Assembly: GCA_963722765.1 (NCBI GenBank) | Contig: CAVROO010000007.1 | Location: forward strand, 159,606 to 223,605 | Reading direction: 5' to 3' | Origin: an uncultured Acidobacteriota bacterium | GTDB lineage: Bacteria > Acidobacteriota > Vicinamibacteria > Marinacidobacterales > DATDRI01 | DNA: 64,000 nt | Shown: positions 21,923 through 29,757 of the stretch, in pieces | Numbering within the stretch: position 1 is the stretch's first letter | Layout of the letters: each line of letters starts with the position of its first letter | Translations under genes and position numbers: made by a program | The notes under the pieces: generated by a model | What the model saw: only the letters and a program-made list of their open reading frames with translations | What the model was told of the DNA's origin: nothing | The model's database searches: none

Positions 21923-23655
21923 ATGAAGCTTTTCGACTGGGCGGCACACCGCGGCGGCATGTCTCGAGTACTTTTCTCCAGTGCTTTGCTGGCACTCGGT
22001 CTCGTGCTCGTGGTCTGGGCCGGCAACCGCGCGACGAGGCGCGAGCTTCTGACGTTGCTCCGCGACCAAGCGGCGTCGTTGAGACAGACTCTAGCGGCGG
22101 CGGCACGCTCGAACTACGAAGCGAGCAAGCAAGCGGCCGGCGAGCTCGAGGTGCGCATGCTCGAGAGCGCTCACATGCTGGCCGAGCTCGACCGGCTCGA
22201 TTTACTGAATGAAAATCTACTCAACGAGATGGTTAGCCGAAACCGGTTGTTCCGTGTCACCATTTACGGGCCCAATCGCGAGGAAGAGTACGCCAGTGGA
22301 GGCGCCCGGGGTCCAAGAAGGGGCTTCGGTCCGGGATTCGCTACCGGGTACGGGGGGAGTCTTCTCGATCGATTGTACTCCGACGAAGAGGCCACACGAA
22401 GTTACGGATATACACGTGTCCCGCTGGGGCGATTGGAGGGGGTTCGCCGCCGTCCGGCGCGAATCGGGCGGTGCCATCGTATTGAACGTCGATGCCTCTC
22501 AAGATAAAAAGACTCGAGCGGCAATCTTCCCTCAATTACCTACTCGAAGACATCACCGAGAACGCGAGCGAGGTGGTTTATGTGGTTTTCGAACAGGACG
22601 CCCTCCACATCGCTCACGGCGATATCCCGAGCGACCTGGACATCGAATCCGCCCAGGACGGCACGACCTCAGACGGGAGGTGACCTTCACTCCGAGGAAC
22701 GCGAGACGGAAGTGGGCGGTCACTCCGTCCTCGAGTTCGCCGGCCCCATTGTCTTGGACGAGGAAACGACGGCGTTTCTGCGCCTCGGAATCAAGGCTCG
22801 ACGGACTGCGCCGGGCTGAGCAACGTATGCTGTGGCAACTCAGTCTGTCGCTGGCGGCGAGTCTAGCCTTGGCGTTTCTCGGTGTCGGTACGGTTTGGCT
22901 TCAGCGCAAGTACAGCTTGCTGAGTGAACGACACGATCGCACTCGGGAAGCCCTTCGGCGGAAGGATCGTCTGGCCGCCATGGGAGAGCTTTCCTCGACC
23001 GTGGCCCACGAAATAAGGAATCCACTGAATGCCATCTCCATGAGCGCCACGCGGTCTGCGTCGTGAGTTTTTGGACACCGTACCCGTTTCAGGCGACGAC
23101 CGAGAGGAGGCGGAAGAGCTCCTGGGTGTTCTCGAGGTCGAGTCGCGACGGATGAACGACCGGATTCAGCAGTTTCTGGACTTCGCCCGTCCTCCCCGCC
23201 TGGCGCCGCGTCCGACCGACCTTGGGGAGCTCACACGATCGGTAGAGGAAAGCGCAAGGGCTACAGGCGCTGCGAAAGGGGTGGAGGTCACTTCCGATCG
23301 TCCGGCGCCGGAATGGCCACAGTGGATCCCGAGCAGCTTCGGCAAGTCCTCGAGAACCTCGTCCGAAATGCCGTCGAGGCCACACCCGAAGGCGGCCGTG
23401 TATCCATCGTTGCCCGCCGCCGAGGGAAGTTCCACGAAATCGAGGTGACCGACACCGGGAAAGGGATCGAGGTTGAGCGACCTACCTCGTCTCTTCGATC
23501 TCTATTTCACTACGAAGACGGAGGGTACGGGCGTCGGATTGGCGGTGGCCCAGCAGGTAGTGACCGCTCACGGCGGAACGATCGAGGTGGACTCAACCCC
23601 GGGACGAGGTACTACAATGACCATCAAGCTACCACGTGCGGAAAGCAAATCATGA
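21923..23655 (+). CDS. sensor histidine kinase (membrane, HisKA + HATPase_c), multiple frameshifts
   Basis: N-terminal TM segment. HisKA H-box [23 protein letters not shown] in ORF 22209..23066. N-box and G-box pieces [16 protein letters not shown]...[10 protein letters not shown] and [31 protein letters not shown] in two further frames. Stop overlaps the RR start (ATGA). Confidence 0.8.
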
Positions 23656-25016
23656 GTGAACGGGTGGTTCTCGTCGTCGATGACGAAGCTTCGCAGCGCA
23701 AGGTCCTCTCCGGGTTCCTTCGCAAGCGCGGCTTCGTGACCCTGTCCGCGGAAAGTGTTGATGAAGCCCTCGAGCTCGCCGGTACCAACGTGATCGATCT
23801 CGTGATGACCGATCTCCGCATGCCCGGTCGAGACGGCATCGAGCTGCTTCGAGAGCTTCGGGCGATGAATCCCGAAGTTCCCGTGATTCTGATGACCGCC
23901 TTCGGTACCGTCGAAACCGCCGTTAACGCCATGAAGGAGGGGGCCTCGGACTACCTGACCAAGCCGATCGATCTCGACGAGCTCCTCATACTGGTGAACC
24001 GCAACCTGGAACACCGGGCACTCGAGTCCGAGAACCGGGAGCTTCGACGGCAACTCGAATCCCGTTATCGCCTGAAGGGCCTCCAAACATCGAATCCCAA
24101 AATGGCCCAAGCCATCAACGTTGCGGCTCGAGCGGCTTCGAGCCGCGCAACCATTTTGATCCGCGGCGAGAGCGGAACCGGTAAGGAGCTTCTTGCCCGC
24201 GCCATTCACTACGCGAGTCCTCGCGCCAAACGCCCATTGATCGCGGTCAACGTTGCGGCGCTTCCGGACACTCTTCTCGAGTCGGAGCTTTTCGGACACG
24301 AGCGGGGCGCGTTCACCGGTGCCGACCGGCAACACCGAGGCCGCTTCGAGCTTGCCGATACGGGGACACTTTTCCTGGACGAGATTGGGGATCTTCCTCA
24401 CGGCACACAGGCGAAACTGCTCCGGGCCCTACAAGAAAAATCCTTCGAGAGACTCGGCGGGACACGTTCGTTAAAAGTCGATGTTCGCGTACTCGCCGCC
24501 ACCCATCGTGACCTCGAGGAGATGGTTCGAAAAGGAGAGTTTCGAGAGGATCTCTATTACCGCTTGAACGTGGTCTCCATCGAGATTCCGCCTCTACGAG
24601 AACGCCGGGAGGATATTCCTCACCTCGTCGATCACTTCATTCGACAGTTCGCCGAAGAGAGCGATTCCCACGTAACGGGAATGTCCCGTGAGGCCATGGA
24701 CGGCCTACTCAAACACGATTACCCGGGCAACGTCCGCGAACTGGAGAACATGGTGCACCGTGCTATGGTGCTCGCTCGAGACTCCCTCCTCGCCGTTTCC
24801 GACTTTCCTCTCCATCTTTTAAATATTCAAAATGAAAACATTGCGCCGGACTCGCTCGTCGATCGCATGGCCAATTACGAGAAGGCGCTCCTGACCGAAG
24901 CGCTCGAAAAGGCCGGCGGAGTGAAGACCCGGGCAGCCCGTGCACTGGGTATCAGCGAAAGACATCTCCGTTACCGCCTGAGCAAATACGGCATCGAGCC
25001 CGGCGACAACGACTAG
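23652..25016 (+). CDS. sigma-54-dependent NtrC-family response regulator (REC + AAA+ sigma-54 activator + Fis-type HTH)
   Basis: REC domain (VVDDEAS...[14 protein letters not shown]). Walker [15 protein letters not shown] sigma-54 contact motif. ESELFGHE. C-terminal [18 protein letters not shown]. Intact. Confidence 0.92.
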
Positions 25017-25167: not shown

Positions 25168-25183
25168 TGGCCCTTCCTTTGCT
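25168..25183 (+). promoter_or_regulatory. putative sigma-54 (-24/-12) promoter driving the downstream DUF4405-polyferredoxin operon
   Basis: TGGCCCttcctTTGCT with canonical GG-N10-GC spacing, 23 nt upstream of the ATG at 25206 and directly downstream of the NtrC-like activator gene. Confidence 0.65.
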
Positions 25184-25205: not shown

Positions 25206-26120
25206 ATGAAGGAGCAGCTCATGAAAGATAACAGATTCCGATCGACCTTCTACACACGCGGCTTTACGACCTTCGTTCTGGTGATGTCGTTTCTCGTCAT
25301 CGCCGGGACCGGGATTGCCCTGTTCGCAACACCCCGGGGACGGGTGGCTCATTGGACCGACTGGACGCTCCTGGGTCTGGGGAAAGACCAGTGGAGCAGC
25401 ATTCACCTCACCGCTGCCGCCTTGTTTTTGTTCGCCGCCGCACTCCACATCGTCTTCAACTGGAAGGTCCTCAAAGGCTACCTCAAGTTGAGAAGAGTGG
25501 CGGGTCTTCGGCTCAAGCGCGAGCTCTTTGCCGCCGCCACGGTCAGCCTGTTGTTCGTAGCCGGCACTTTGGCTCAGGTTCCTCCGTTCAGCACCCTCGT
25601 CGATCTCCACCACGAGGTTAAGGATTACTGGGAGCAAACCAGCGTTCGGGCACCGGCGCCTCACGCCGAGGAGCACCATCTTTCAGCGCTTGCACAAAGG
25701 ATGGATCTTTCGACGGAGGACGTGGTCGCCACGCTCGAAGCCAGAGGTTTCACAAATCTGGAACCTGATAGGTCCTTGGCCCGAATCGCCAACGCCAACG
25801 CCGTTGCACCCAGCGAGATCTACGAAAGTTTAGAGCTCAACCATGAGCCTAGACGCCCGCAGTCCGAATCGGTCGGGCCGCGAATGGGCCGAATGACGCT
25901 CGGAGACTACTGCCGGGCCAATGGTATTTCTCTAGACCGAGCGATCGCGACTTTGCGGGATGACGGAGCTCGCGCTCACGAATCCTCGACGTTACGAGAC
26001 CTGGCAGGCTCACTCGACCTGAGACCCGGCGAGCTTGCGCGGAGGCTTGGGGGGCAAGGCGGGAATGGAGGGGTCGGAACGGAAGGCGACGACTGCAGCT
26101 CTACCCGTCGTAGTCGTTAG
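25206..26120 (+). CDS. DUF4405-like membrane protein (cytochrome-b-like 4-TM N-domain) with extended C-terminal soluble region
   Basis: N-terminal TM helices with conserved His residues (HWTDW, HLTAAALFLFAAALHIVFNW) typical of DUF4405. A ~170-aa C-terminal extension is unassigned. Confidence 0.6.
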   Translation: MKEQLMKDNRFRSTFYTRGFTTFVLVMSFLVIAGTGIALFATPRGRVAHWTDWTLLGLGKDQWSSIHLTAAALFLFAAALHIVFNWKVLKGYLKLRRVAGLRLKRELFAAATVSLLFVAGTLAQVPPFSTLVDLHHEVKDYWEQTSVRAPAPHAEEHHLSALAQRMDLSTEDVVATLEARGFTNLEPDRSLARIANANAVAPSEIYESLELNHEPRRPQSESVGPRMGRMTLGDYCRANGISLDRAIATLRDDGARAHESSTLRDLAGSLDLRPGELARRLGGQGGNGGVGTEGDDCSSTRRSR

Positions 26121-26128
26121 GTGCGGAA

Positions 26129-26545
26129 ATGAGATTACAGACATCACTCTTGCGGTTTCTCCGAGCCCTCGCCTTTCCGCTCATGATCGCCTTGGTCTCG
26201 ACACCCGACGCGAAGGCCTGTGAGATTGCCGTCAAGGTCAAGAGCGACCCGAAGCCCTCCTATCAGACGGGGGACGTCGTGGTCTTCGAGGTCACGGTTT
26301 TTCTCACCCATCACGACTGCCCGGAGGGAATCAAGGCGACCAAATTCAATGGTGAAGGACTCGAGCTTCTCGGGGCGACGAAGTGGAAAGAGATCAGCAC
26401 GGGAACCTACGTGCGGCTCGTCAAGGCAAAGGTAACGGCCGCCAAGGACGGCGCGGGGGCGCTGCACGCACGGAGGAAGTGTGACAAGGAAGGAGGGTAC
26501 GGTGTTGTGACGCTCGCCGTTCCCGCTTCGGATGATGATGTCTAG
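26129..26545 (+). CDS. hypothetical small secreted protein
   Basis: 138-aa ORF with signal peptide, 9 nt after the previous stop (operonic). Contains Cys/His residues (KACEIAV, HHDCPEG). Confidence 0.45.
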   Translation: MRLQTSLLRFLRALAFPLMIALVSTPDAKACEIAVKVKSDPKPSYQTGDVVVFEVTVFLTHHDCPEGIKATKFNGEGLELLGATKWKEISTGTYVRLVKAKVTAAKDGAGALHARRKCDKEGGYGVVTLAVPASDDDV

Positions 26546-26560
26546 GAACGTTAGCTGAGG

Positions 26561-27570
26561 GTGCTGCACATGAAATTTCATCATCGCTCGACCACCGTTG
26601 CCGCGATTTGCATCGTTCTCCTCTTTGGATTGGCCTCGGCCCCGGGACAAAACTCTGTCGATAAGGATAAGGGCGAAGCGCTTCTGGAAAACGAAGGATT
26701 CGAGAGCTTTGAAGAGTTCGAAACCCTCGATGAATCGGAGCTAGTCGAAGGCTCAGAAGAAGACAAACCCGCTCTCGAGCATCGCGGTTTTCGAATGGCG
26801 CTCATCGCGCTGGGATTCACGGTACTTGCGGGATTCCTAGTCCGATCCCGACGTCTACGGCCAACCCGAGCCGTTTTGCTCCTTGCCTCGCTCGCCGTTC
26901 TCGGTTTCTGGAATGGCGGCTGTCCCTGCCCCATTTCCAGTTTTCAGAACCTCGTTCTTTTTCTCCAAGGGGTTGACGTCAAGACTCATAGCCTGATCTG
27001 GTTCCTGGCCCTCGTTCCCATCACGTATGTCTTCGGACGAGTCTGGTGTGGGTGGATCTGCCATCTCGGGGCACTTCAGGAGTTCGTCCACAAACCGAAT
27101 CGGCTGGCCTTTTTACACGGTGAGGGTGCGCGTAAAGCCATGCGTGTCACGCGCTATGTTTTGTTCTTCTCGCTACTCGCCCAGCTCGCGCTGACGAAAG
27201 AGAACCTCTTCATCCACGTCAACCCCTTCAAGGTCGCGTTCAACATGAGATCTTTTTACTTGAGTGGTTGGATCCTTCTCGGCATCCTTCTTGTAAGCTC
27301 CCTGTACGTTTATCGGCCTTTCTGCCGTTCGGCTTGCCCGGTGGGTTTGATGCTGGGTTGGGTTGGGCGTCTGCCCTTTGCCTCCAAACTCGCTCTCAAC
27401 GACGACTGCCGGACCTGCAAGCTCTGTTCGAAGGCCTGTCCGGCGGAAGCCGTGACCACCGCTCATCAGCAAATCCAAATTAGACATGAAGATTGTTTTG
27501 CCTGTGGCTCTTGTATGGATGCCTGCAGGCGGGACTCAATTTCCTTTGAACGAAAGGGAGGCGTCGATGA
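26561..27570 (+). CDS. NapH/MauN/FixG-type membrane-bound 4Fe-4S ferredoxin; C-terminus uncertain
   Basis: TM helices with the CGWICHLGALQEF motif. Two ferredoxin motifs CRTCKLCSKACP and CFACGSCMDAC. The six-frame ORF runs to 27748, overlapping the next gene by 180 nt. A frameshift near the end would give a TGA overlapping the downstream ATG (ATGA) at 27567-27570. Confidence 0.7.
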
Positions 27571-28901
27571 CGACACGAGCAAACCGCATCACTTGGATCC
27601 TGGTTCTGTCTTTGTTCCTAGTAACAAAGTCAACGGTCGCTCAGGAATGCGACAGCCAAGTGGCGGCGCATCTGGAGCCGGTGAAGGAAGGGTCGGGGCT
27701 TTCGTGGGCGATGGAACTGACCGGCCAACTCGGTTACCTGGGTCATAGCTCACTCGATCGGGGCCTTGCCAGCGGCATGGTGTTTCTCGGTCTGCACTAC
27801 CAGTCCGACTTCGAATCTCCCCATCGCTTCTATTTCGAGGGTGGCTACAAGAACTGGTACAAGACCGACACCGGCCCGGGACTCGGCGGTGACGGGCAAA
27901 CCTTTGGTGATTTTCCAACTCCGGCAAAAGACAACTGGGGACTACGAGAAGCCTACTACGATTTCGACGGCGGCCAGACGAAGGTTACGGGCGGTCTCCA
28001 TACGGCGAGCCTCGGAGAAACGCTTCTTTTGGACGAGCGCGCTGTCGGTTTGAGCTTCCAGAGAGAGCTTGGACCGGTCCAATTTCAGATGACCACAGGC
28101 AGTGTCATGACTCGCTTCGCGAGAATGAAGGACTTCTGCGCCACTCGCCATGTCTATCGCGTCGTGCGCGGAGGACGGATCAATTACGTCGGTGACGGTT
28201 TCGGTGAAACGAATTTCTTGGGTGGCACCGTCTCTTGGTCACCCTCGGGCGGAGCGACATCGGACGACCTTGCCGGCGAGGAAGAGGAAGACGAATTTGG
28301 AGCATTCGAGGAGCTTTCTTCCTTCGAGGAATCCGAGGAAGGTCTCGTGCGCCGTGTGGGCGCCGTCTTCTTCGAAGAGTTCGGGTCTGCTTTTCTCGTC
28401 AACCAGCTTTATTACGGAGGACTCGCCGAGCTCAATCTATGGTCCGACCTCGAGCTCGAGCTCGAGTTGATCCACCAACATGTCGCCGATCATCGCGTGC
28501 TCGGATACATGGTCCAGGGTCAAAAGGACTTCACCTGGAAGTCGGGCGCCTTTACCGCCTTTCGGCTCGGTTACATCGGCAGCGCCGAGGTCGATCCGGA
28601 CGCCCGCTTCCGCCCCACCTTCAGCAATCTTTTTCTCGGAGAGGTCATGCGACTGGATGTCGCCAACATGCCTCTCGTTTTCGGGCGATTGAAACATACG
28701 CTTACTTGGAGAGGTAGGCCCTCTATCGGTTTTTTCGCCGTAGCACAAACCTCCGCAACACGTGCCGAAGAATACGACCTCGAGCTCGACGTCCATCTCA
28801 CCCGGGGTCTTCGTCTCTACGGGGTCGTTGGATTCGTGCGCGCCGAGTCTCTACCGTCGTCAACAACCGTCGCACGGGCGCAGTTCCGCTACGCTTTTTG
28901 A
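27567..28901 (+). CDS. putative outer-membrane beta-barrel protein (porin-like)
   Basis: AAGGGAGG SD 7 nt upstream. Signal peptide MTTRANRITWILVLSLFLVTKSTVAQE. Alternating amphipathic beta-strand pattern. Acidic linker EEEEDEFGAFEELSSFEESEEG. C-terminal RAQFRYAF with terminal aromatic residue. Confidence 0.6.
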   Translation: MTTRANRITWILVLSLFLVTKSTVAQECDSQVAAHLEPVKEGSGLSWAMELTGQLGYLGHSSLDRGLASGMVFLGLHYQSDFESPHRFYFEGGYKNWYKTDTGPGLGGDGQTFGDFPTPAKDNWGLREAYYDFDGGQTKVTGGLHTASLGETLLLDERAVGLSFQRELGPVQFQMTTGSVMTRFARMKDFCATRHVYRVVRGGRINYVGDGFGETNFLGGTVSWSPSGGATSDDLAGEEEEDEFGAFEELSSFEESEEGLVRRVGAVFFEEFGSAFLVNQLYYGGLAELNLWSDLELELELIHQHVADHRVLGYMVQGQKDFTWKSGAFTAFRLGYIGSAEVDPDARFRPTFSNLFLGEVMRLDVANMPLVFGRLKHTLTWRGRPSIGFFAVAQTSATRAEEYDLELDVHLTRGLRLYGVVGFVRAESLPSSTTVARAQFRYAF

Positions 28902-28917: not shown

Positions 28918-29757
28918 ATGGCATGCAATCGAAGAGATTTCATTCGCCGGAGCGGATCGCTCGTGATCGCCGGGGCGACCGGTGGATCTCTCGCCAGTCT
29001 GCTCACGGGCTGCAGTGAGAGCACCTCAACGTCACCTCTTTATGGAATCGAGATCTGCCCCAATACCTGCACGGGTTGTGGAACGTGCATCGACTCCTGC
29101 AGCAGCAGCGCCATCCAGTTGCCGCGAGAATCATCGTTTGCCATCGATTCAGCAAAGTGTGTGGAGTGCGGCGATTGCCAATCGGTTTGTGAGCCGAAGG
29201 CAATCCACGTAGCGGCAAAAAAGATCGAGCTGAACGCCGACCAGTGCGTCGGCTGCGGCGACTGCCTCGAGGTCTGCCGGAACGAGGGCGGGGCAATCCA
29301 GTGGGAACGGGATCACTACCAAGTTGGCAGTAGTTGCCACCCCGGAAGGTGCGGCCGTCCCTGCATAAGCTCTTGCCCGGAGAACGCCATTACGACGGAG
29401 CAAGGGCGAGCTCACATCGACCGCGACCGTTGCACCCGATGCGGCCGATGTCTCGAGGTCTGTCCTTACGGAGCCATTTCTCCTGCTCGGGTTCTTTTCG
29501 ACGAATCAAAGTGCACCCGATGCGGAAAGTGCGCCGATGTGTGCAACCACAACGCGATCACGAGCCAGTTGCCTGCGATCGATTTCGAGCCCAGTATCGC
29601 GCTCGACCTCTGCAATCAATGCGGTTCCTGTGAAACCGCCTGCACGCACGACGCCATTATCGCAGAGCGGTATCAAGCGACGGTTGTGGCGGAACGTTGT
29701 TCGGGGTGTGGTTCTTGCGTTCCGACCTGTCCCTTCGACGCCATTCGGACGCTGTAG
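28918..29757 (+). CDS. Tat-exported periplasmic polyferredoxin with eight [4Fe-4S] binding motifs
   Basis: Twin-arginine signal MACNRRDFIRRSGSLVIAGATGG. Eight CxxCxxCxxxC-type motifs (for example CTGCGTCIDSC, CVECGDCQSVC, CTRCGRCLEVC, CSGCGSCVPTC). Starts 17 nt after the OMP stop. Confidence 0.85.
   Translation: MACNRRDFIRRSGSLVIAGATGGSLASLLTGCSESTSTSPLYGIEICPNTCTGCGTCIDSCSSSAIQLPRESSFAIDSAKCVECGDCQSVCEPKAIHVAAKKIELNADQCVGCGDCLEVCRNEGGAIQWERDHYQVGSSCHPGRCGRPCISSCPENAITTEQGRAHIDRDRCTRCGRCLEVCPYGAISPARVLFDESKCTRCGKCADVCNHNAITSQLPAIDFEPSIALDLCNQCGSCETACTHDAIIAERYQATVVAERCSGCGSCVPTCPFDAIRTL

Follow-up and report, generated by a model that had tools for sequence, protein, structure and literature searches.

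We analyzed a 64,000-nucleotide stretch of an uncultured Acidobacteriota bacterium (contig CAVROO010000007.1 of assembly GCA_963722765.1, positions 159,606 to 223,605; hereafter the window), in which the open reading frame (ORF) 27567-28901 encodes a protein that structure models place among the outer-membrane beta-barrels. This barrel belongs to a previously undescribed family and is part of a cytochrome-free redox module across the cell envelope. The module consists of a small secreted Cys/His protein, a NapH-like inner-membrane Fe-S protein and the barrel, with a polyferredoxin added in one subtype that includes the window. The NapH-like gene overlaps the barrel gene and is fused to it in some relatives, and on account of this overlap and fusion we take the NapH-like protein, and not the polyferredoxin, to be the primary partner of the barrel. 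The reading we favor, to which we give about an even chance, is that the barrel serves a NapH-driven redox module of the periplasm as its channel or docking partner in the outer membrane. No description of this gene cluster was found in the searchable literature.

Predicted structure of the barrel protein

An original prediction made from the window had described the ORF as a beta-barrel gene with a strong Shine-Dalgarno sequence, a signal peptide, amphipathic strands and a C-terminal aromatic residue (RYAF), and most of this description was borne out. AlphaFold2 produced 18 strands both from 10 sequences (predicted local distance difference test, pLDDT, 63.5) and from the 42 sequences of alignment A3 (pLDDT 77.4, predicted template modeling score 0.76), with the five models of the latter run spanning pLDDT 76.4-77.4. 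The top Foldseek matches in the PDB were all 18-stranded outer-membrane barrels at ~10% sequence identity. Campylobacter MOMP (5ldt) gave the best E-value (1.4e-11) and AlgE the best TM-score (0.57-0.60), many OprD/Occ channels followed, and ChiP was also among the channels that the fold resembles. Single-sequence and profile searches returned no Pfam match at E<=1 (and none common to the 42 homologs at E<=10), no NCBIfam match and a best PDB sequence match of E=0.58. Assignment to the OprD/Occ, Alginate_exp (AlgE) or MOMP sequence families was rejected for lack of a profile hidden Markov model match.

The generic features of outer-membrane barrels are present in the sequence and the AlphaFold2 models: a signal peptide, a closed even-stranded barrel and a C-terminal aromatic beta-signal. 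The C-terminal F444 (...FRYAF) is the same in all 42 homologs of alignment A3, and at least 90% of them keep R441 and A443; R437 is conserved as well. The amphipathic strand pattern is present but modest, with a mean phase difference of 1.87 vs 1.43 +/- 0.25 in shuffles (~1.8 standard deviations above them), and is by itself weak evidence for a barrel. The N-terminus (MTTRANRITWILVLSLFLVTKSTVAQ, followed by EC) has the n/h/c layout and a VAQ/E cleavage site and looks like a Sec signal peptide; residues 2-18 are modeled as a helix and full-length homologs align to this region. A second in-frame ATG at 27486 is also open for the ORF. We favor the start at 27567 because full-length homologs (alignment A1) begin there and because the Shine-Dalgarno AAGGGAGG, with a gap of 5 nt to the ATG, belongs to that codon. 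In the public database entry for the identical protein (P0001, 396 aa), translation begins 48 codons later at Met49, and the signal peptide is therefore lost from the public annotation. This late start appears to be an attempt to reduce the overlap with the NapH-like gene. The dropped portion (27567-27710) also encodes the conserved Cys28 segment.

In outer-membrane proteins the N-terminus is standardly periplasmic, odd connections being external loops and even connections periplasmic turns. Assigned by this parity, three loops of the barrel are long (24 aa in L2, 36 aa in L4 and 28 aa in L7) and its turns measure 2-7 aa, and the resulting pattern of long loops and short turns supports the assignment. 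The single exception is turn T4, the 36-aa acidic segment described below. The most conserved parts of the protein are L4 with FARMKDFCATRHVY and L7 with FSNLFLGEVMRLD. Altogether, ~100 conserved non-strand loop residues plus the N-terminal segment have to be accommodated in or on the barrel. C28 and C191 are the only two cysteines. Across 42 sequences, C191 and H195 never change, and conservation of C28 and H35 is at least 90%. AlphaFold2 confidence is low at residues 18-29 and 187-194. An invariant W324-x-S326-G327-A328-x-T330 (window 28531-28551, barrel residues 322-328) falls in a predicted periplasmic turn and resembles, without matching, the flavinylation motif [S/T]GA[S/T]; its SGAFT is longer by one residue.

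Coupling to the NapH-like gene

The last ~60 codons of the NapH-like gene overlap the barrel gene out of frame. The original prediction had rightly seen the NapH-like ORF read ~180 nt into the barrel gene; its alternative, a late frameshift that would create an ATGA stop-start overlap, did not hold. The TGA of this ATGA lies outside the NapH-like frame, and the 182-nt overlap length and the stop position are identical in L003, an Acidobacteriota metagenome-assembled genome (MAG), and L022, a Joint Genome Institute metagenome contig. These are the closest relatives with DNA, come from independent assemblies and are both ~62% identical to the window. Since they share length, register and stop position, the overlap is real, and a frameshift artefact at 27500-27580 is ruled out. 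In other lineages (39 loci), the NapH-like frame typically closes 10-70 nt into the barrel gene, with the relative register mostly unchanged.

Differences between the window and L003 within the overlap are distributed 18/14/32 over barrel codon positions 1/2/3, from which we conclude that the barrel frame is under purifying selection; in the 150 nt after the overlap they are distributed 12/8/28. The NapH-like tail of ~60 residues, rich in Gly, Arg, Pro and Ser, shows no constraint of its own, and homology of the NapH-like protein to relatives in other phyla ends with residues 327-344, at the very start of the barrel gene. A selected functional C-terminal extension of the NapH-like protein was rejected as unsupported, since the pattern of substitutions is that of the barrel frame and the fewest changes fall on the NapH wobble position.

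In-frame NapH-barrel fusions occur independently in three cluster representatives of 856-904 aa, P0080, P0084 and P0089. From the N-terminus onward these consist of an EF-repeat region, a NapH-like module, a basic stretch, a hydrophobic segment that resembles a signal sequence and ends in A-x-A followed by QW[ED]C, and finally the barrel. Such a protein is topologically sensible only if the C-terminal Fe-S domain of the NapH-like module is cytoplasmic, as in the accepted topology of NapH, and the fusions fit this orientation because the internal signal-like helix and its AxA site are kept. A natural NapH-NapG fusion (MLMS-1 polyferredoxin) provides a precedent for a NapH C-terminus joined to an exported partner (PMC5449189). 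At the P0080 locus (L050 1040-3754) the fusion is one continuous ORF, preceded by the small-protein gene.

The region 3' of this fusion (L050 3793-6337) contains a small 2x[4Fe-4S] lipoprotein-like ferredoxin, then a Cys-less paralog of the small protein, together with an ArsP_1 permease and a protein with a type IX secretion system (T9SS) tail and a weak match to DUF2271, a domain that is flavinylated elsewhere.

Conservation of the module across genomes

The barrel family is rare. Ten close matches were found among 5.8 billion proteins (45 with a profile), and an exhaustive search of 1.84 billion representatives uncovered 163 barrel-family cluster representatives, with family members all unnamed or annotated as "hypothetical". 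Nineteen genome loci are labelled Acidobacteriota, Bacteroidota (Bacteroidales, Prolixibacteraceae, Draconibacterium), Neomarinimicrobiota, Deltaproteobacteria or Gammaproteobacteria, and 28 further loci come from metagenomes. Counting only loci with enough flanking sequence, the NapH-like gene lies directly upstream of the barrel in 34 of 36, across at least five phylum-level labels. In 30 of 32 loci the NapH-like gene is in turn preceded by the gene of the secreted Cys/His protein (~132 aa), and 15 of 38 loci have the polyferredoxin gene immediately after that of the barrel. The original prediction had read meaning into the redox context of the gene, and the homologs agree: given the NapH-like linkage, the usual overlap and the three fusions, this context is not accidental. 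Neither of the outcomes named beforehand as refuting the original prediction, a non-barrel fold or homologs always outside redox contexts, was observed.

Among 150 flanking ORFs the recurrent families were TetR regulators (11), ArsP_1 permeases (7), DUF2202 ferritin-like proteins (6), T9SS sorting domains (5), extracytoplasmic function sigma factors (4), cupins (4) and ferritins (2). No reductase, cytochrome c or ApbE occurs among the 25 most frequent families of these 150 ORFs, in a tally of families seen at least twice. The DUF2202 genes stand near the module in L002 (2680-4171), L004, L007, L014, L016 and L019; in L002 a T9SS sorting domain on the DUF2202 protein suggests that this ferritin-like protein is extracellular.

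An acidic motif on two proteins

The disordered acidic segment of the barrel (pLDDT <50 over residues 229-256) has a core, D242-E243-F244..F247, that is at least 90% conserved in the 42 homologs. The original prediction had singled this segment out as unusual and placed it possibly inside the barrel. The segment is indeed real and conserved, but it is modeled as disordered and not as a structured element within the barrel, and parity makes it a turn, T4, predicted to face the periplasm. Comparison with the NapH-like protein revealed a related pattern. Glu precedes 92 of 152 Phe in the T4 segments of the barrel family (24.3 +/- 4.2 in composition-preserving shuffles) and 132 of 237 Phe in the N-terminal regions of the NapH-like proteins (38.8 +/- 5.2). 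All 33 NapH-like proteins of the family have a signal peptide followed by an acidic (D/E)EF-repeat stretch. The acidic segment of the barrel is thus one half of a motif common to two proteins of the module, with both halves predicted to be periplasmic. In some barrel relatives from Bacteroidales the acidic turn contains His (...DDEFHENHDFNEF...), a variant that could be a metal-binding elaboration of the EF motif.

Other genes of the operon and its upstream region

The features of the operon are collected in Table 1.

Table 1. Features of the barrel operon, in positions of the window.
Feature	Position	Strand	Details
Sigma54-type -24/-12 promoter-like element TGGCCCTTCCTTTGCT	25168..25183	+	23 nt upstream of first operon gene
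DUF4405 membrane protein, first operon gene	25206..26120	+	Pfam PF14358, E=6.5e-16
Small secreted Cys/His protein	26129..26545	+	138 aa; cleavage between AxA and C, mature N-terminus Cys31
NapH-like inner-membrane Fe-S protein	26561..27748	+	395 aa; Pfam Fer4_5 (1.3e-15) and Fer4 families
Acidic N-terminal region of NapH-like protein (...ENEGFESFEEFETLDESELVEGSEEDK...), predicted periplasmic	26648..26773	+	Short version of the family (D/E)EF repeats
Shine-Dalgarno AAGGGAGG of barrel gene	27554..27561	+	Read from sequence; within NapH-like coding sequence
Outer-membrane beta-barrel gene (predicted)	27567..28901	+	444 aa; predicted signal peptide residues 1-26; 18 strands
Out-of-frame overlap, NapH-like 3' end and barrel 5' end	27567..27748	+	182 nt, -1 register
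Acidic disordered segment SPSGGATSDDLAGEEEEDEFGAFEELSSFEESEEGL	28239..28346	+	Barrel residues 225-260, between strands 8 and 9
Tat-exported lipoprotein polyferredoxin	28918..29757	+	279 aa; NRRDFIR twin-arginine translocation (Tat) motif, LLTGC lipobox

The NapH-like protein is built of a signal peptide, the acidic EF region, ~5 transmembrane helices, a GGCPCP motif, two CX3C(H/P) motifs and a C-terminal 2x[4Fe-4S] domain. Its membrane module has Fer4_5 matches in two stretches, CGWICH and CRSACP, and two CxxCxxCxxxC motifs. We deduced its topology from the hydrophobic segments, the known topology of NapH (PMC5449189, PMC5928378) and the fusions. We call the protein NapH-like, and not NapH, because its NCBIfam scores stay below the cut-offs for NapH (NapH/MauN family TIGR02163, 82.7 bits vs 213; NF007013, 77.8 vs 234) and because the window operon has neither napA nor napB. 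Across loci L001-L043 the family comprises two subtypes, distinguished at residues ~115-165 of the NapH-like protein (window 26900-27050) by GGCPC with CGWxCH (CPC/His) or GG-PG with CGWxCY (PG/Tyr). The polyferredoxin gene is found downstream in 12 of 13 cases of the former and in none of 10 of the latter, and the barrel and small protein are kept in both; the window protein has the CPC/His form. A role of the CPC as a universal metal site was rejected, as half of the family has GG-PG and CPC marks the polyferredoxin-linked subtype.

The polyferredoxin, whose gene follows the barrel gene after a gap of 16 nt, has seven CxxCxxCxxxC motifs for ~8 [4Fe-4S] clusters and matches Pfam Fer4 in 7 stretches (E=6e-40). 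The Tat motif and the lipobox Cys are conserved in all 15 polyferredoxins, each of which has 7-10 CxxCxxCxxxC motifs. The small Cys/His protein has no Pfam, NCBIfam or PDB match; alignment A2 shows the invariant residues H61, C64 and C118 and the motifs THxxCP and RxC[DE]K[DE]GG. It is basic in most lineages (median isoelectric point 9.2), and its charge correlates with the number of EF motifs in the NapH-like protein (rho 0.59, p 0.008, phylogeny uncorrected). The DUF4405 gene is present in only 4 related loci. DUF4405 binds heme b and has been proposed as a transmembrane electron carrier (PMC11334425), which makes the window protein a putative carrier of this type. Pfam and NCBIfam searches with the operon proteins detected no catalytic enzyme and no c-type cytochrome in the window operon.

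The sigma54-type element has one mismatch to TGGCAC-N5-TTGCW, and such matches are not above chance in a scan (18 vs 19.7 expected). A homologous element, TGGCCCGCCTCTTGC, stands at the same place in L003 (7566-7580), giving TGGCCC-N6-TTGC as the form conserved between these ~62% identical relatives. A sigma54-dependent response regulator is encoded just upstream (ORF 23313-25016), and the contig of P0006 contains a Sigma54_activat match. The element owes its weight to its position and its conservation in L003, and to nothing else. The sensor histidine-kinase gene further upstream (21923-23655) has at least four frame changes: it is read in frame 2 to 22390, frame 3 to 23054 and frame 1 to 23298, with two more switches before the end of the HATPase at 23655, and the response-regulator part is intact to 25016. 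The kinase gene of L003 also has one break, and the disruptions represent either a pseudogene or indel errors of assembly.

Proposed function of the module

NapH-like and DUF4405 proteins are modular parts for extracytosolic electron transfer (PMC8238504, PMC11334425). In the mechanism we favor, the mature NapH-like protein would begin with a disordered periplasmic tail of acidic EF repeats and would deliver to the periplasmic face electrons taken from the quinol pool or on the cytoplasmic side, and in the CPC/His subtype the ~8-cluster polyferredoxin would carry them further. Because no catalytic reductase is encoded, the chemistry would act directly on a simple substrate at the Cys/His protein, the barrel or both. 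The barrel may then be a channel for substrate or product and an outer-membrane docking point, as opposed to an open sheath, with its lumen largely filled by L2, L4 (FARMKDFCATRHVY), L7 (FSNLFLGEVMRLD) and the N-terminal Cys28 segment. The acidic EF tethers, one per membrane, may both recruit the same periplasmic protein, for which the basic small protein is a plausible candidate in most lineages. As to the substrate, NapH-family proteins have roles in reductive metal handling. Together with the ferritin-like neighbors and the carboxylate-rich tethers, these roles point weakly to a metal cation, iron first, as the most likely class.

Several observations weigh against this picture. All barrel homologs come from MAGs or metagenomes. 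One contig, seen as L013 and L025, has the barrel and the polyferredoxin and no adjacent NapH-like gene. Docking is weakened in the window clade, since there the small protein is neutral (net charge 0) and the NapH-like tail has one EF motif only. DUF2202 or ferritin neighbors, the source of the hint at iron, occur in only ~7 of ~40 loci. Plugging of the lumen and a contact between C28 and C191 are conjecture, as the acidic and loop segments have low model confidence. At the contig with no adjacent NapH-like gene (L013/L025, 8219-12196), the only locus of this kind, an adjacent small-protein gene is also absent, and an unrelated, divergently transcribed gene lies upstream.

The original prediction had preferred a conduit sheath. 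In such a reading the barrel would wrap part of the polyferredoxin, as MtrB wraps MtrA, and electrons would cross the outer membrane to an external acceptor. The close spacing of the two genes in the window and their adjacency in 15 loci speak for such an arrangement, as do the Tat-exported lipoprotein polyferredoxin, whose 7-10 cluster motifs make a plausible Fe-S wire, the lack of a cytochrome or other terminal enzyme in the module, and the T9SS-secreted DUF2202 and DUF2271-like proteins near some Bacteroidota loci. However, the polyferredoxin is missing from 23 of 38 loci, including the whole PG/Tyr subtype, with the barrel kept, and the tightest coupling, by overlap and fusion, is with the NapH-like gene. 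The size of the barrel is a further obstacle. Standard geometry, R = b/(2 sin(pi/n) cos a) with n=18 and S=20, would give a C-alpha radius of ~16.5 A, vs ~23.5 A for a 26-stranded barrel of the MtrB type; a 2x[4Fe-4S] ferredoxin domain is ~25-30 A across, and the ~100 conserved non-strand residues also need room. We regard the sheath as unlikely on two counts, a barrel that is too narrow and a polyferredoxin that is optional. Equally improbable in our estimate is a cytochrome-free Fe-S route from the inner membrane to the cell surface, running from the NapH-like protein through the lipid-anchored, ~8-cluster polyferredoxin wire and a Cys/His redox or metal site within the barrel to external acceptors. 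T9SS-secreted ferritin-like (DUF2202) or DUF2271-like proteins would be alternative end acceptors of this route, and the acidic EF tethers on both membranes would assemble the chain. Such a chain would amount to a new kind of extracellular electron transfer, or of reductive metal acquisition, in the Acidobacteriota, Bacteroidota and Neomarinimicrobiota.

A redox-active or metal-binding barrel is doubtful but conceivable. By analogy with Cyc2 and DUF3570, C28/H35 and C191/H195 might form a metal site or redox disulfide inside the barrel, fed with electrons or metal by the small Cys/His carrier or the polyferredoxin. The conservation of these four residues in a protein with no other Cys is what such a site would predict, the small protein has its own invariant set of Cys and His, and clusters of DsbD, a Trx-like protein, the CXC protein DUF4266 and DUF3570 have a similar gene logic (PMC8238504). 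Yet the barrel has no cofactor motif, with neither CxxCH nor an exact [S/T]GA[S/T] (it has SGAFT), the two Cys could be a plain structural disulfide, and the models have little confidence around both of them. Flavinylation, suggested by the likeness to DUF3570 and DUF2271, was rejected because the motifs are inexact and ApbE was not seen among the listed neighbor families; we keep it as an analogy only. Finally, the resemblance of the fold to the substrate-specific channels OprD/Occ, ChiP and MOMP would suit an ordinary nutrient or general-diffusion porin placed beside redox genes by chance. Its synteny with the NapH-like and small-protein genes across phyla, the gene overlap, the in-frame fusion in three lineages, the EF motif common to the barrel and the NapH-like protein, and the rarity of the family (163 clusters in 1.84 billion proteins) make this explanation very improbable.

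Implications

Electrons are known to cross the outer membrane through multiheme cytochromes housed in large porins, as in Mtr and Pcc, or through a porin with a fused heme, as in Cyc2. Several anaerobic and sediment lineages with few cultured members carry the present module. If it does transfer electrons or reduced metal through the envelope, redox exchange with minerals and metals would be underestimated in metagenomic surveys based on cytochrome counts. A conservative reading still adds three unannotated families, namely the barrel, the small Cys/His protein and the EF-repeat NapH variant, and corrects the public start of P0001 with its signal peptide restored. The short linear EF motif on both membranes is directly testable. 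Fusion of an inner-membrane protein to an outer-membrane barrel, with an internal signal peptide kept, also bears on the biogenesis of membrane proteins.

Comparison with known systems

By fold, the barrel is closest to AlgE, OprD/Occ and Campylobacter MOMP (Foldseek E-values of 1e-10 to 1e-11), which likewise have 18 antiparallel strands, long external loops and short periplasmic turns. The structure of AlgE also has an unusually long periplasmic turn. These proteins differ in their genomic context, and the DEF..F periplasmic insertion and the N-terminal Cys segment belong to the present barrel only. In Cyc2, which functions in Fe(II) oxidation, a small barrel with a conserved N-terminal segment, possibly in the lumen, likewise has a redox role at the outer membrane; the present barrel differs in having two Cys only and no CxxCH heme motif.

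Porin-cytochrome conduits (MtrAB/MtrCAB, PioAB and Geobacter Pcc/OmbB-OmaB-OmcB; PMC4282303) likewise combine in one operon a barrel, a periplasmic multi-centre carrier and a redox lipoprotein. There the carrier is a c-type cytochrome, whereas here it is an optional Fe-S polyferredoxin; their barrels have ~20-28 strands vs 18 here (444 aa), and only here is the barrel translationally coupled to an inner-membrane protein. With respect to MtrB and PioB in particular, the barrel has no Pfam MtrB_PioB match, is smaller than their 26-28 strands and 650-700 aa, and has no multiheme cytochrome in its operon. The DsbD/Trx-like/DUF4266/DUF3570 clusters follow the same logic of an inner-membrane transporter, a small Cys protein and a ~420-aa protein, the last without a known enzymatic domain, with occasional iron-transport neighbors (PMC8238504). 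The present barrel, in contrast to DUF3570, has no PF12094 match and no exact flavinylation motif, and the inner-membrane component is of the NapH type instead of DsbD.

The inner-membrane component resembles those of the quinol dehydrogenase NapGH, NosR and PceC in its NapH membrane module with two CX3C (Fer4_5) motifs and a C-terminal 2x[4Fe-4S] domain. The polyferredoxin is Tat-exported like NapG and unlike it in its ~8 clusters and lipobox. NosR and PceC likewise have an extracytoplasmic N-terminal region after the first hydrophobic segment and before the second (PMC5928378); theirs is an FMN-binding (flavin mononucleotide) domain (PMC5928378, PMC8238504), whereas here it is an acidic EF-repeat tail. 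NapGH differs further, in that no napA/napB or other reductase accompanies the present genes and the fused partner is an outer-membrane barrel. The module thus shares its logic with each of these known systems and falls outside the definition of every one of them.

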